DNA of 64,000 nt, from positions 1,120,001-1,184,000 of the forward strand of contig CAWANH010000029.1 of the NCBI GenBank assembly GCA_963783375.1, in the 5' to 3' direction. A program made the position numbers and the translations under genes. This DNA is from Candidatus Eiseniibacteriota bacterium. GTDB lineage: Bacteria; Eisenbacteria; RBG-16-71-46; JABDJR01. Positions 44,692-52,088 of this stretch are shown here, piece after piece (positions within the stretch are counted from its first letter, which is position 1; every line of letters starts with the position of its first letter). Under the pieces are notes generated by a model, which was not told where the DNA came from, made no database searches, and was given only the letters and a program-made list of their open reading frames with translations.

Positions 44692-47600
44692 ATGGACGAG
44701 GCTCTCGGGCGGGAAGGCCGATCTTCTCCGGAGCCCTCCTCCGGGGCGGCGGGGGGAGACGGCGCCCGGGCGCGGGCGATCGCCGACCAGTTCGAGGTCG
44801 CCCTGGGCTGCCCCGATGCGGTGACCGCGGCCCTGGCCGGAATCCTGGCGGGGACCGGTACCCTGCCCACCGGGCGCGAGAAGACGCTCCTCGGCCTGGC
44901 TCCCCTGCTTCGGCGGCGCACCGGGGCGGTGGCCGCCGCGCTCTTCGACGGTCTGTCCTCCGCCCTGGACCGCCTCCCCGATCCCCGGCCGCTCCTTCTG
45001 GAACTTCTTCGCACCCGGGATCCCGAACTGCTTTCCCGCGCGCTCGCCCACACGGAACGCCTGGTCGCGGCGAAGGCCGTTCATCCGGACCGCCGACTGC
45101 TGGCCTTCTTCGCCGAGCGATTCGAGGAACGCGGCGGGCTTTGGGAGCGCCCCGAGACCCTGAATCGCGTGGCCGAACTGGTGGAATCCTCCGGCCCTTC
45201 TCCGCCCTGGACCGATTTGCTGACCGATCCCGCCGACCCCGGTAGCGCCCGGTTGGCCGCGCGAGCCCTCGACCGGCACGGGGAACCCGCCCCCCCCGGG
45301 GTCGCCCGGCGGATCCTCGGGGAGGTGGCCTACGCATTTCTCGCCCCCTACCTGGCCTACACCCGGGCCGGCCATGCCGATCTCCTGGCCCTGGTCCCCC
45401 GCCCCGGCGCCCCGCCGCCGGCGCTCGCCGCCCTCCGCCGGGCGGCCGAGCGATGCGGCGAGAGCGCCCTCCGGGACATCGTGGCCCGGTTGGGCTGGCC
45501 GGCCGTGAACCTGGGGCTCGAGGCGGGGCCGGTATGGGAGGTCTCGCTGGCGGGAGCCTTCCCGTACCTGATGTCCCCGGAAGAAGCGCCGCTCCTCGAA
45601 GCGGTGGGCGAGACCCGGAAACACGGCGAGGCGATCCTCGCGGTGGCTCACGGCGGAGCGCCCGACCCCGGACGGGAGGGGCCGGGAGCCGAGGACCCGG
45701 TGGCCCGCTTTCGGGCCATGAACCTGGTCCACGCCGAGCTTCTGGCCGAGATCCTCGACGTCTCCCCCCTCACCCCGGAGAAGGTGCGCCGGATCCTCGG
45801 TGGGATGGACCGGATCGTCGCCGATTTCGTCGGAGTCTTCGCCCGCCACGCCGAGGACGAGGCGGCGGCGCTCCCCGGTCTCTACGCCGCACTCAAGGGT
45901 CGGGTCGAGGCGGAGCTCACCCCCGAGTCCCGCCCCGCCCAGCTCTCTGCCGAACTCACCCGGCTGGTCCAGGCCTTCGAAGACCCCCAAAGCCTCGCCG
46001 AGGTTCGCACCCTCCACGGCCTCAAGCGCTACCTCCACCAGCGGGGCCTCCGCCTGGGGTTCCGCCTGGTCGAGGCCGGACGCGCCACCAACCGGAGCGT
46101 CCGGGTTCTGGTGCTTCGGCCCCGGCGGGAGCCGCCGTCCCCGGTCGTCCTTCGCTACGTGGATTTCGAGCCCGGGGACTACGCGCCGGACTCCGCCCCC
46201 CCGGTTCCCTATCCGGTTCGGGCCCTGGCCGAAGGGATTTCCCGGCAGCTCCTTGTGGGAACATTGGAGTTTCCTGACGTTAAAATATTTTGCTATGGCA
46301 ACGAGGTCCACTACTACCTCGCTTTCGGCACCCATCCCGCGTTCCTCCGGGTGGACTACGCGCCGCCGCTCCGGGGGGGCATGGTCGACCTCGAGTACTA
46401 CGGGGTGAGCAAGGTGGATCTGGGGGCGCATCCCGACCCCAGCCTGGCCGGTATCCGCCTCCTCCTCGAACGGCTCGATTTCGACGTCACCATCGACGCC
46501 ACCCGGGTCCATGCCCGCTACGACAAGGAGCGGGCGCTGGATCTCGGAGAGCTGTGCGAGCACGCCGAGGCCCTCCTCCGTCTCCTCCCCCACGTGATGG
46601 ACGTGGACTGGACGATCGGGTCGCTCCGGCTCTCGCCGGCGGCGCGGTGCGCGACCGCGGAGGCCTGGGCGGAGTTCTTCCTGCGCTGGGGGTCGCTTCC
46701 GGTCGAGCGCTTCCTCACCGACGACCGGGTGGGGATCACCACCGGGCGGGAGACGGGCCCGGCCGGAGACCGCGAAACGGTGTGGGACGGCCGGGGGCCC
46801 TACCGCGACCGGTACCGCCCCGCCCCCGCGGCCCGGGATTTCCTGCCGCTGGTGGAGAGCCTGGGGGCCGGGGGCCGGGCGATTGCCGCGGAACTGGAGT
46901 CGGCGGGGGGTGAACCGATGGGGCAACTCGCCCTGGAGCGGCTCGTGCTCCGCCCGCTCCACGAGGCGGCGGGAGAACCCTCCGCCGGGGCCACGCACTC
47001 CGGGAGGCGACCCGGCGGCCCGCCTCCCCACGAGGCCGAGCGATTCGCACACATCCTGGAGGGAGGCGTGGAGCCGGTCGCCGCCGCGGCGCGCGCGGCG
47101 GCCCTGGTCGCCCCGCTCACCCGAAGCCTCCGCTTCCGGACCACCGGGTCGGTGGAGGGTTTTGCCACCCAGCACGCGGTGGTTCCCCTTCGAGGGGCCC
47201 GCCTGGACGCACACGTGCTCCGCGATCCCTCGGGGCTGATCCGCCTCGCCTACTTCACCGGAGTCGGAAGAGACGGCCGGCGGAGGCTCGGGGGAGTGGG
47301 GTGGCCCGGCGAAGCCGGTCCGGAGGAGGGAACCGCGATCACCGGAGAAGGGACCGGCGCCGGCGATCCGGGGCTCGACGCCGCGCGCCTGGCCGCCCTC
47401 CTCCGGCGAAACAGCTACCCCGTGGTCGAGACCGGGGGGAGCGATTCGGAGGTGGAAGCCGAAGCCCGTGAAACGCTCGCCGCGGTCGGGCGCTCCGCCC
47501 ACCTCCCCCGTCCCCGACCCATCCCCGGAGAGCGATTGGTCACCGGGCTCCGCGCTTCCCCCGGCCGCGCGGTGGGGCGGGCGGTTCTCGATGCGGCGGG

Positions 47601-49835: not shown

Positions 49836-52088
49836 TCCGACGCGAGGATTCCCTCACCTATCACGCTGCCGGGCGCCCCGGAAAGATCGAGGTGCGGGGG
49901 ACCAAGCCCTGCCTCACCCCGCGCGAGATGCGGCTGGCTTACCTCCCCGGCGCGGCATTCCCTTCGGCGGAGATCGCCGAGACCCCGGCCGAGGTATTCC
50001 GCTACACCGCGCGCGGGAATCTGGTGGGGGTGATCACCAATGGATCCGCCGTCCCCGGCCTCGGCAACGTCGGCCCCGAGGCGGCCAAGCCCATGCTCGA
50101 GGGGATGGCGGTGCTGTTCAAGCGCCTGGCTGACATCGACGTTTTCGATCTCGAACTCGCGGTGGAGGACCCCGATCACTTCGTGGAGGTGGTGAAGGCG
50201 CTGGAGCCCACCTTCGGCGGGGTGAACCTGAAGGACATCCGCGCCCCCGAGGGCCTCATCCTCTTCGACCGGTTGAGCGAGGCCCTCCACATCCCGGTTT
50301 TCCACGAGAACCTCTACAGCTCGGCGGTGGTGGCGGGGGCGGCGCTGCTGAACGCTCTCGACCTGGTGGAGAAACGGATCGGGGAGATCCGGGTTGTGGT
50401 GTGCGGGGCGGGCACCATGGGGACCGGCTGCGTGCGGCTTTTCCTGCGCCTGGGGGTGCGGCCGGAGAACCTCCTGGTCTACGACCTCCACGGCCTCGTG
50501 CATCCGGCGCGCACCGATCTCCACGACTTCCAGCGTCTCTACGCCCGCGACCACGCCGCGCGCACCCTGGCGGAAGGACTTCGAGGCGCCGACGTGTTCC
50601 TCGGAGCCTCGGCCGCCGGAGTCCTGACCCCCGAGATGATCCGCTCCATGGGCCGCTATCCGGTGGTCTTCGCCCTGGCCACCCCGGAGCCGGAGATCGG
50701 GTACGAAGCGGCGCGCTCTAGCCGGAAGGACGTGATCGTGGCCACCAGCCTCGGCCAGGACCCGAACGCGGTGGTGGACCTGTTGAGCTTTCCCTACATC
50801 TTCCGCGGGGCACTGGACGCCGGGGCCACCCGTATCACCGAGGGCATGCTGCTCGCGGCCTCGCGCGCCCTGGCCGAACTGGCCCGGGAGGACGTGGTGG
50901 AGGAGGTGGAGCGGGCCTACGGCCACCCGCACTTCGTCTTCGGACCGGAATACCTTCTCCCCAAGGCCATCGATCCCCGGATCCTGGTGCGGGAATCGGC
51001 GGCGGTGGCCCGCCAGGCGGTGGAGGAAGGGGTGGCGCGCCACCCCCTGGCCGACGCCGCCTACCAGGAGAGCCTCGCCGTCCGCCTGGGAACCGGAAGG
51101 GAGACCCTGCGCGGGCTGATCCTGAAAGCCCGCCAGGAAAACCCGCGGGTGGTCTTTCCCGAGGGCACCAACGAGACCATTCTTCGCGCCGCGGGCATCC
51201 TGCTCGACGAGGGGATCGCCCGACCGATCCTGCTCGGCCGCGAGGACGAGGTGCGGGAGTCGATCCGCCGGCTCGGGCTCGACCTGGGCGGGGTCCAGGT
51301 GGTGGATCCGGCGAAGAGCGCGCGGGCCGAGATCTACGCGGAGGCCTACTTCCGCATGCGGAGGCCGGCGCGGGGTCATGCGGGAGGCGGCCCGCGAACG
51401 GCTGGAGCGCCGGGACGTGTTCGCGGCCATGATGCTCCACTCCGGGGACGCGGACATGATGGTGGCGGGGATCCTCGCCCATTACGCGGAGTCCCTCCGC
51501 ACCATCCTCGAGGTGATCGGGCCCGCGCCGGGGGTGAAGCGGATCGCCAGCCACTACCTGGTGCTCCTCCCCAAGGACGTCTACCTGCTGGCCGACTGCG
51601 CGGTGAACATCGACCCCGATGCCGACGAGCTGGCGGAGACCGCCCTCATCTCCGCCCGCATGGCCCGCTCGGTGGGGATCGAGCCGAGGGTGGCCATGCT
51701 CTCCTTCTCCAACTACGGGAGCGTCGACCATCCCTCCACCCTGAAGGTCCGCCGGGCGGTGGAGATCGCCCGGGAGCGGGAGCCGGGACTCATCATCGAC
51801 GGCGAGATGCAGATCGCCACCGCGGTAAACGGGGAACTCCGGCGCGAGCACTTCCCCTTCACCCGGCTGGAGAAGGACGCCAACGTGCTGGTCTTCCCCG
51901 ATCTCCAGTCCGGCAACCTCGCGCTCCAGGTGCTCCAGCACCTCGGGGAGGCGGTGCCGATCGGACCGGTCCTCATGGGCACGCGGCTCCCGGCCCACCT
52001 CCTCCAGTACGGCACCACGGTGGAGGAGGTGGTGAACCTGACCGCGGTGGGGGTAGTGGAGGCGGCGGCGGCGCGGCGCTCGGGGTAG
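49832..52088 (+). CDS. maeB: MaeB-like (malic enzyme + phosphotransacetylase-like domain) protein with degenerate active site; one frameshift near 51365
   Basis: [15 protein letters not shown] and [13 protein letters not shown]-like VVFPEG, ADCAVN, AMLSFSN, DGEMQ and VFPDLQSGN; extra C at ~51365; ATGA overlap with the upstream gene. Confidence 0.88.

Follow-up and report, generated by a model that had tools for sequence, protein, structure and literature searches.

We analysed a 64,000-nt window of contig CAWANH010000029.1 from a Candidatus Eiseniibacteriota bacterium (hereafter, the window) and focused on two overlapping genes in it, encoding a giant swivel-His dikinase and a paralogue of hybrid malic enzymes (MaeB-like protein; Table 1). 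Both genes are real, and in the data searched the pair is rare, patchily distributed and never split. The two genes almost certainly form one functional unit. The pair is likely an unstudied acyl-CoA-controlled phosphate-transfer machine at the pyruvate/phosphoenolpyruvate (PEP)/oxaloacetate crossroads of uncultured bacteria. We tentatively read the dikinase as passing phosphate to a small molecule of this node, with the MaeB-like protein as a non-catalytic acyl-CoA-sensing subunit.

Linkage and integrity of the gene pair

The dikinase stop codon and the MaeB-like start codon share an ATGA at 49832-49835, with an AAGGAG ribosome site at 49818-49823 and an 8-nt spacer, as the sequence-only reading of a coupled two-gene operon had stated. 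The two co-directional genes lie between an FHA-domain gene in divergent orientation (43722-44342) and a TMEM260-like gene in convergent orientation (52130-54604). A scan of positions 44200-44800 found no promoter or terminator.

A MaeB-like gene followed the dikinase in all 21 distinct genome loci with downstream DNA; this count excludes three duplicates as well as L001, of which only the N-terminal part is present, and G038, which matches in the ATP-grasp alone. The ATGA overlap was present in 13 of them, a gap of 4-118 bp in seven, and in the remaining one (G003) a 408-aa MFS transporter gene (L013:9149-10375) sits between the two genes. Among 61 metagenome loci, 54 carried the partner, four lacked the dikinase end and three ended within 200 bp; the partner was never missing where there was room for it (54/54 informative loci), and the ATGA overlap recurred in 25 of the 54. 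Linkage in other genomes, on which the sequence-only reading had staked its proposal, thus held across phyla. Clustering of the 81 fetched loci gave 63 groups at 90% identity and 42 at 80%. Five loci (L053, L060, L061, L063 and L064) have 344-442 bp between the two genes with no convincing open reading frame (ORF); this space could hold an RNA element or a promoter.

Across 151 genomes of the window's phylum, both genes were found in the same 13 and neither in any other. An Acidobacteriota sample of 300 genomes yielded four more with the dikinase, the partner being adjacent in each, and a phylum sample around a Syntrophobacter genome yielded no more dikinases among 300. Titled records came from Acidobacteriota, Desulfobacteraceae, Syntrophobacter, Eisenbacteria, Bacteroidota, Planctomycetaceae and Zixibacteria. 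Paired distances of the two proteins were correlated (r 0.77, 46 pairs; reached by 0 of 2000 permutations), as is also expected from shared inheritance of an operon. For covariation, the 97 paired sequences amounted to approximately 66 effective rows for 1664 x 751 columns, which is too few. The pair had no match on viral contigs and plasmids, no third gene travelled with it among the loci compared, and a search for fused forms gave no extra Pfam domain in the 12 longest or odd relatives.

As written in the window, neither gene is a single open frame, each changing frame once. Compared with congener G020 (93% DNA identity), the dikinase gene is longer by two bases at 48875-48876 and the MaeB-like gene by a single base at 51363. 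The base at 51363 is missing from short-read contigs of three runs (X1, near-identical to the window, X2 and X5). Position 48875 was covered by one short-read contig only (X2, from a relative approximately 94% alike), in which the two bases are absent. A 98% identical MaeB-like protein (P0121, 751 aa) and a 71% identical dikinase (P0002, 1664 aa) are unbroken; 114 of 119 dikinase relatives are at least 1580 aa long and 119 of 120 MaeB-like relatives at least 725 aa. The TreY gene of the same window is likewise split across frames, which fits an indel-prone assembly. The frameshifts at 48875 and 51363 are probably assembly errors.

Relative to G020, dN/dS was 0.09 in the malic-enzyme (ME) domain, 0.08 in the PTA domain and 0.18-0.33 in parts of the dikinase. 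Values between two Syntrophobacter loci were 0.06 and 0.12, and two further ME-domain comparisons gave 0.10 and 0.25; for the MaeB-like gene, three of the four comparisons thus fell at 0.06-0.10 and one at 0.25. The family is under purifying selection and not decaying. Decaying pseudogenes or a chance neighbourhood would account for the frameshift that each gene carries in the window and for breaks also present in several other long-contig genomes. This explanation is refuted at the family level by unbroken close relatives, short-read contigs free of the extra bases, dN/dS far below 1, identical substitutions across phyla and 100% linkage, and we consider it extremely improbable. Neutral decay of the MaeB-like gene, against which the sequence-only reading had hedged, was likewise not seen.

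Domains and residues of the two proteins

According to Pfam, the dikinase comprises an unassigned N-terminal region, a PEP-utilizers His domain (PF00391; E 1.5e-8, residues 978-1084) and a C-terminal PPDK_N ATP-grasp (E 3.8e-44). Its first 950 residues had no Pfam match, and Pfam placed no PEP-utilizers_C barrel (PF02896) in the gene; the two PF02896 matches of the genome lie elsewhere. Phosphotransfer domains without a barrel had been predicted from the sequence and are borne out by these matches. The dikinase had also been called reversed, which is right in that the ATP-grasp comes last; the order itself is not new, being that of plant glucan water dikinases.

Residue conservation was scored in 87 long sequences, most of which represent 50% clusters. 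The His of the GGxLSH motif is kept in 85 of them, and the ATP-grasp Lys, Arg and Thr in 87, 87 and 83, respectively; the match to Lys22/Arg117/Thr136 of rifampin phosphotransferase (RPH) was made by motif. Among solved structures, the ATP-grasp is closest to PEP synthases (E 2e-37; PDB 8a8e, 9dae). Two relatives are divergent, P0342 (1540 aa) and P0352 (1464 aa); P0342 keeps the front-domain motifs, yet has no Pfam His or ATP-grasp match.

The front half was modelled with confidence by AlphaFold2 (AF2; pLDDT 84, pTM 0.83; core alone 88 and 0.84) as a helical repeat, a four-helix bundle and two alpha/beta domains. A front-half profile retrieved 229 proteins from 1.84 billion, and the 150 listed look like the same family or its fragments; the region of approximately 900 residues was found only in this dikinase family. 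The same profile matched nothing among PDB sequences and Pfam. Foldseek gave no PDB match at E 0.001, viral structures gave none, and VIA returned generic helical matches only; generic helical-repeat matches were also all that the N-terminal helical-repeat-like region had. For the core, the best solved match was to the double-wing domain of T4 MotA (Z 6.7 over 100 residues), a score that chance arrangements also reach. The Atlas gave a weak Rph_4th lead at 0.77, which did not recur, and nothing for residues 420-680. These searches show the front half neither as a new fold nor as a different one. In the alignment of 87 sequences, the core is densely invariant in His, Arg, Lys, Asp and Glu, the set that a phosphate-accepting site would have, and we predict such a site here. 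Invariant positions of the front half, numbered as in P0002, include His347, His442, Lys445, Arg446, His449, Glu535, His545, Arg550, Asp563, Arg606, Asp608, Lys609 and Asp636. With the missing barrel replaced by the dikinase's own conserved N-terminal domain, the dead MaeB becomes less likely as the acceptor-binding part.

The dikinase shares the ATP-grasp and swivel-His domains, with their key residues, with PEP synthase (PpsA, EC 2.7.9.2) and PPDK (EC 2.7.9.1). It differs from both in having no PEP/pyruvate barrel, a C-terminal ATP-grasp instead of the ATP-His-barrel order, and a unique front half of 900 residues. Two residues before the His, where PPDK and PEP synthase carry a regulatory Thr, 86 of the 87 sequences have Leu. 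Scores were far below the cut-offs of the PEP synthase and PPDK families. The order of acceptor region, His domain and C-terminal nucleotide-binding domain is that of glucan water dikinase (GWD) and phosphoglucan water dikinase (PWD; EC 2.7.9.4/5), as given in PMC5575247 and PMC12892837. Unlike these, the dikinase is bacterial, has a partner gene and showed no CBM45 or CBM20 in the Pfam scan; GWD1_pHisD (PF22973) had no match at E 1 in the window's genome. In RPH, the beta-phosphate passes to His, which then swings by >40 A to the acceptor domain (PMC4844700). Enzymes of the RPH family and of the two-component small-molecule dikinases (RPH, HpeHI, CreHI, PpsAB) resemble the dikinase in the His shuttle and in a barrel replaced by another acceptor domain (PMC4844700, PMC12167813). 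The order differs, RPH-like enzymes having ATP-grasp, acceptor domain and C-terminal His domain; the dikinase scored 120 bits on the RPH profile NF041857 against a cut-off of 999, and the RIF-binding acceptor domain was not among its fold matches, the weak Rph_4th lead aside. By its parts, the dikinase thus appears to be of the swivel-His type but not a member of the PEP synthase, PPDK, GWD or RPH families.

The partner contains malic, Malic_M and PTA_PTB domains (Pfam) and matched Bdellovibrio-type (clade 2) MaeB (PDB 6zng, 9kru) and E. coli MaeB (8jzo) over its full length (E 1e-204). With these it shares ME, hook and PTA domains in one chain. Residue numbers and roles follow the Bdellovibrio enzyme of PMC7902834 and were mapped by hand through the alignment; the catalytic and metal site described there includes Tyr52, Lys107, Glu149 and Asp174. 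In the window copy, Lys107 is replaced by Met, Glu149 by Lys, Asp174 by Glu and Asp175 by Asn, and Tyr52 and Asp150 are kept. The best 120 matches behave alike: all retain Tyr52, 119 retain Asp150 and not one has Lys107 (replaced by Met in 57, Val in 34, Ile in 25 and Leu in four); the other replacements are Lys for Glu149 in 114, Glu for Asp174 in 111, Asn for Asp175 in 118 and Thr for Asn300 in 105; the original Glu149 and Asp175 occur in 0/120 each. Since these 120 were ranked by likeness to the query, residues were also counted in copies found via the dikinase, with Lys107 in 0/53, Lys at 149 in 48/53 and Asn at 175 in 52/53. Rossmann Gly194 is replaced by Arg or Met in 7/120. The replacements are common and not invariant, a pattern that suits a binding site better than an active site.

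All six residues are kept in 21 ordinary MaeBs, 15 of them from pair-bearing genomes, and the MaeB-like copies, which are always tied to the dikinase, form their own clade apart from these 21 (SH-aLRT 100; quick tree). The scaffold of a hybrid malic enzyme that has lost its catalytic residues, proposed from the window alone, is therefore a family-wide property. A separate ordinary maeB, sought at the suggestion of the sequence-only reading, coexists with the pair in 21 of 25 genomes, in some of them partial or frameshifted, and was not found in G123, G152, G159 and G299. The window's own genome holds an intact copy (G000:C28:713896-716136, minus strand).

At the 12 positions of the acetyl-CoA site, Arg535, Tyr576, Arg581, Asn616, Gln683, Asn718, Pro735 and Gln748 are kept in 109-119 of the 120 sequences, and Lys538 is Arg in 114, so that nine positions are kept or conservative. 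The lining of the acetyl pocket is changed (Thr614 to Ala, Tyr721 to Leu/Met, Lys722 to His/Gln). The site thus resembles that of clade 2 in PMC12704298, its acyl end being altered, and the acetyl-CoA-sensing PTA module of the original proposal is largely retained at residue level. In active PTAs, Asp occupies the Val746 position and Ser/Thr the Tyr576 position (PMC7902834), where the MaeB-like copies have Leu in 106/120 and Tyr in 112/120. The partner appears to be a MaeB descendant but no malic enzyme: it is predicted to be unable to use the known malic chemistry and to keep most of a CoA site.

Proposed mechanism and competing explanations

Node enzymes of five kinds account for 12 of the 108 nearest flanking genes (Table 1), giving an independent pointer to the pyruvate/PEP node that had been named from the sequence. 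The 108 are the nearest upstream and downstream genes of the 81 loci; 88 were searched against NCBIfam, and 20 were left out as duplicates, close homologues or already annotated genes. The node neighbours represent five or six separate events, with a binomial chance of 1e-3 to 3e-6 (80 slots; 0.5-1% of genes in the class); approximately eight node-class genes were found in the window's 4.7-Mb genome. MaeA and Na+-oxaloacetate decarboxylase, both pyruvate-making, lie co-directionally just upstream in five loci.

The explanation we tentatively favour, at clearly less than an even chance, is a sensor-gated dikinase transferring phosphate to a node small molecule, with the dead MaeB as its acyl-CoA-sensing subunit. 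Intact dikinase residues, co-encoding and strict linkage, the lost malic catalysis, the largely kept CoA site, the ordinary maeB elsewhere in most pair-bearing genomes and the node neighbours argue for it. Conversion of pyruvate to PEP would be the likeliest output, given the likeness of the ATP-grasp to PEP synthase and the presence of co-directional neighbours that produce pyruvate from C4 acids, a known alternative to PEP carboxykinase (PMC8100219). ATP would be bound by the C-terminal ATP-grasp and split to AMP and phosphate, its beta-phosphate passing to His1010; the residues for this step are kept, and the chemistry is proposed by analogy with PEP synthase and RPH. The His domain would then swing to the N-terminal domain, where the invariant His/Arg/Lys/Asp/Glu set of this conserved and modelled domain may bind the acceptor and a metal. 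The MaeB copy, whose site conservation is observed, is predicted to form a PTA hexamer, to bind acetyl-CoA or a related acyl-CoA and to contact the dikinase; its malic-enzyme dimers would rotate as in MaeB and switch the bound dikinase. A second ligand, possibly a C4 acid or NADP(H), may be bound without turnover in the rebuilt malic-enzyme pocket, where Lys occupies the old metal site. We infer binding between the two proteins, gating of the dikinase by acyl-CoA-driven rotation and an acceptor located in the front domain. If true, a complete allosteric enzyme (MaeB) has become the sensor subunit of another enzyme, and the swivel-His superfamily gains a new phosphate-acceptor domain.

Several observations weigh against this explanation. 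The acceptor domain has no fold likeness to the pyruvate-binding barrel. Among the flanking genes, 96 of 108 are not node enzymes, including the window's own two neighbours; the node class was named beforehand, but its members were fixed partly after looking, and metabolic genes cluster. The fused E1 type is unsure and may be branched-chain or acetoin type. A PPDK-like barrel gene was present in 21 of 21 pair-bearing genomes tested and PEP carboxykinase in 24 of 25, which leaves no obvious need for another PEP route. Canonical PEP synthase over the cut-off was found in 0/25 pair-bearing genomes and also in 0/10 relatives without the pair, which makes its absence uninformative. The acetyl-CoA residues, too, vary (Asn718 in 110/120, with Asp in one; Arg535 in 113/120), and the three changed pocket residues mean that the ligand may differ or be absent.

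An acyl-CoA-sensing protein kinase, in which the dikinase His passes phosphate to a protein and so sets node flux, is an unlikely but serious alternative; its purpose would be like that of mitochondrial pyruvate dehydrogenase kinase, and its targets could be the dead MaeB, ordinary MaeB, MaeA, PEP carboxykinase, PEP carboxylase, PPDK or E1. It would suit node neighbours that are several and different with none constant, a 900-residue front half with helical repeats that is large for a pyruvate site, and ordinary node reactions that are all covered already. The usual PPDK regulator PF03618 occurs in just five of 21 pair-bearing genomes, and the MaeB copy has new conserved Ser/Thr/His positions, e.g., Thr195, His550 and His633. 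However, swivel dikinases act on small molecules or glucan in the papers considered (PMC4844700, PMC12167813, PMC12892837), no phosphatase gene travels with the pair, and ordinary maeB was not found in four of 25 pair genomes, so it is not an obligatory target. Slightly less probable is a single new reaction catalysed by both subunits, with Lys134 in place of the metal and phosphate supplied by the dikinase. The rebuilt site would oxidise malate or reduce an intermediate without decarboxylating, the options being malate to PEP and CO2 or ATP-driven reductive carboxylation of pyruvate. Such a site could explain the conserved new set (Lys134 in 114, Arg137 in 107, Glu159 in 111, Asn160 in 118 and Asp316 in 118 of 120), the retention of Tyr37 (120/120), Asp135 (119/120) and the nucleotide-side Asp218 (115/120) and Arg227 (120/120), and a malic domain under constraint similar to that on the sensor domain; there is precedent for repurposed malic enzymes in dedicated oxaloacetate decarboxylases, which still need a metal (PMC8100219). 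On the other side, each of Lys134, Glu159, Asp135 and Gly194 is substituted in some linked copies that are intact in other respects, and Asn300, a nicotinamide contact, is Thr in most copies. Nor is there complementarity in the phylum sample with PEP carboxylase (3/13 pair genomes vs 8/138 others) or pyruvate carboxylase (2/13 vs 15/138). The chance that one of these two holds, that is, an acyl-CoA-gated protein kinase built from dikinase parts and spending ATP to AMP on the phosphorylation of node enzymes, or a lysine-for-metal two-subunit enzyme joining malate and PEP in a single ATP-driven step, falls somewhat short of even; if so, the pair would be a twelfth kind of node component with an acceptor domain of new fold.

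The acceptor may also lie outside the node, the node neighbours then being loose metabolic clustering. We regard this as improbable. Candidates are a cofactor, glucan as in plants, or another acid that is converted to an acyl-phosphate and then transferred to CoA at the PTA domain. RPH-like dikinases have diverged to many acceptors (PMC4844700), the domain order is as in GWD (PMC5575247), the acetyl pocket is altered and most neighbours are unrelated. Against this stand the five to six separate node-enzyme events, the origin of the partner as a node enzyme, a PTA domain in which Leu and Tyr occupy the positions of the Asp and Ser/Thr of active PTAs, and the lack of GWD1_pHisD and carbohydrate-binding module matches noted above.

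Few parts of metabolism are as well studied as the PEP-pyruvate-oxaloacetate node. Eleven types of enzyme are counted there in a review (PMC8100219), and the pair fits none of them. Full-text literature searches found no paper on the pair; subscription papers lay mostly outside these searches, and supplementary alignments of PMC7902834 and PMC12704298 could hold members. Databases annotate the dikinase as an ordinary pyruvate water dikinase and the partner as an ordinary malic enzyme. Reactions that these proteins probably cannot do are therefore assigned in metabolic models to Eisenbacteria, Acidobacteriota, Syntrophobacter, Zixibacteria and others.

Feature positions and neighbouring genes

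Table 1. Features of the gene pair in the window and node-enzyme genes beside the pair at other loci.
Feature	Location	Strand	Remarks
Giant swivel-His dikinase gene	44692..49835	+	approximately 1713 codons in the congener's frame
Helical-repeat-like N-terminal region	44770..45490	+	AF2 model; weakly conserved, few conserved columns; likely scaffold
Four-helix bundle	45682..46083	+	invariant His347, FEDP and HGLKRxLHQ motifs; AF2 model, alignment
Family-specific alpha/beta core	46084..47424	+	predicted phosphate-acceptor site; invariant Glu, His, Arg, Asp, Lys (HP, RxDKE, DW)
Swivelling phosphohistidine domain	47545..47949	+	PF00391; His codon 47719-47721 in GGxLSH
Linker	47950..48729	+	approximately 260 residues, poorly conserved; alignment
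C-terminal ATP-grasp (PPDK_N)	48730..49760	+	Lys 48757, Arg 49131, Thr 49188, Glu 49698, Gln 49734; spans frameshift
AAGGAG ribosome site and ATGA stop/start overlap	49818..49835	+	read from sequence
MaeB-like gene (hybrid-malic-enzyme paralogue)	49832..52088	+	751 codons in the congener's frame; catalytic Lys and two metal ligands lost
Malic-enzyme-fold domain	49832..51090	+	Tyr37 (49940) kept, Met92 (50105), Lys134 (50231), Glu159-Asn160 (50306-50311), GAGTxG loop (50405)
PTA-like predicted sensor domain	51131..52085	+	Thr614 to Ala, Tyr721 to Leu, Lys722 to His/Gln at acetyl pocket
PEP carboxylase	L014		flanking the pair
GTP-PEP carboxykinase	L094		flanking the pair
MaeA-type malic enzyme	L081, L084		co-directional, overlapping or close upstream; catalytic motifs present
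Na+-oxaloacetate-decarboxylase-like gamma-alpha-beta cluster	L092:177-3380, L112, L105:125-3167		runs into the dikinase within about 20 bp
Na+-oxaloacetate-decarboxylase-like cluster	L012:15366-18589, L103:11425-14415		convergent, directly behind the partner
Fused 2-oxoacid dehydrogenase E1	L007, L022, L023		divergent

The decarboxylase-like cluster is a divergent representative of its type; its alpha subunit matches PYC_OADA weakly, and its substrate may not be oxaloacetate. Two further genes lie outside the node count: L023 also has an aspartase/fumarase next to it, and in G129 the pair is separated by 6 kb from an ordinary maeB. In one lineage, a 227-aa gene with no Pfam match lies directly upstream of the dikinase (L056:3921-4598, L060:243-878, L064:4896-5579, L066:186-869).

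Replacement of PEP carboxylase, pyruvate carboxylase or PEP synthase by the pair was considered and rejected, as no complementary pattern was found. PEP carboxylase and a pyruvate carboxylase/OadA domain each occur in six of 25 pair-bearing genomes; in the phylum at large they are as rare (11/151 and 17/151 for PEP carboxylase and pyruvate carboxylase). Matches to the second half only of PEP carboxylase were found at G003:C3:338115-339329, G020:C384:1957-3168 and G438:C2:172034-173200, in open frames of 780-840 aa. The window's genome also holds a PPDK (G000 C3, about 217900-220700, minus strand), and a GTP-dependent PEP carboxykinase gene lies in the window at 10900-12945 (minus strand), 32 kb upstream of the pair.

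Elsewhere in the window, a 1605-aa ORF (30456-35270, plus strand) had no NCBIfam match at E 1e-40. TreY (malto-oligosyltrehalose synthase; 60675-63321, minus strand) stands beside TreZ and GlgX, its split frames being likely further assembly indels. A signalling cluster at 35247-44342 encodes a PP2C phosphatase, a GAF-HD protein, two PilT-type ATPases, a HEAT-repeat Ser/Thr kinase and the FHA protein. A homologue of the HEAT kinase is also found near the pair in L002.

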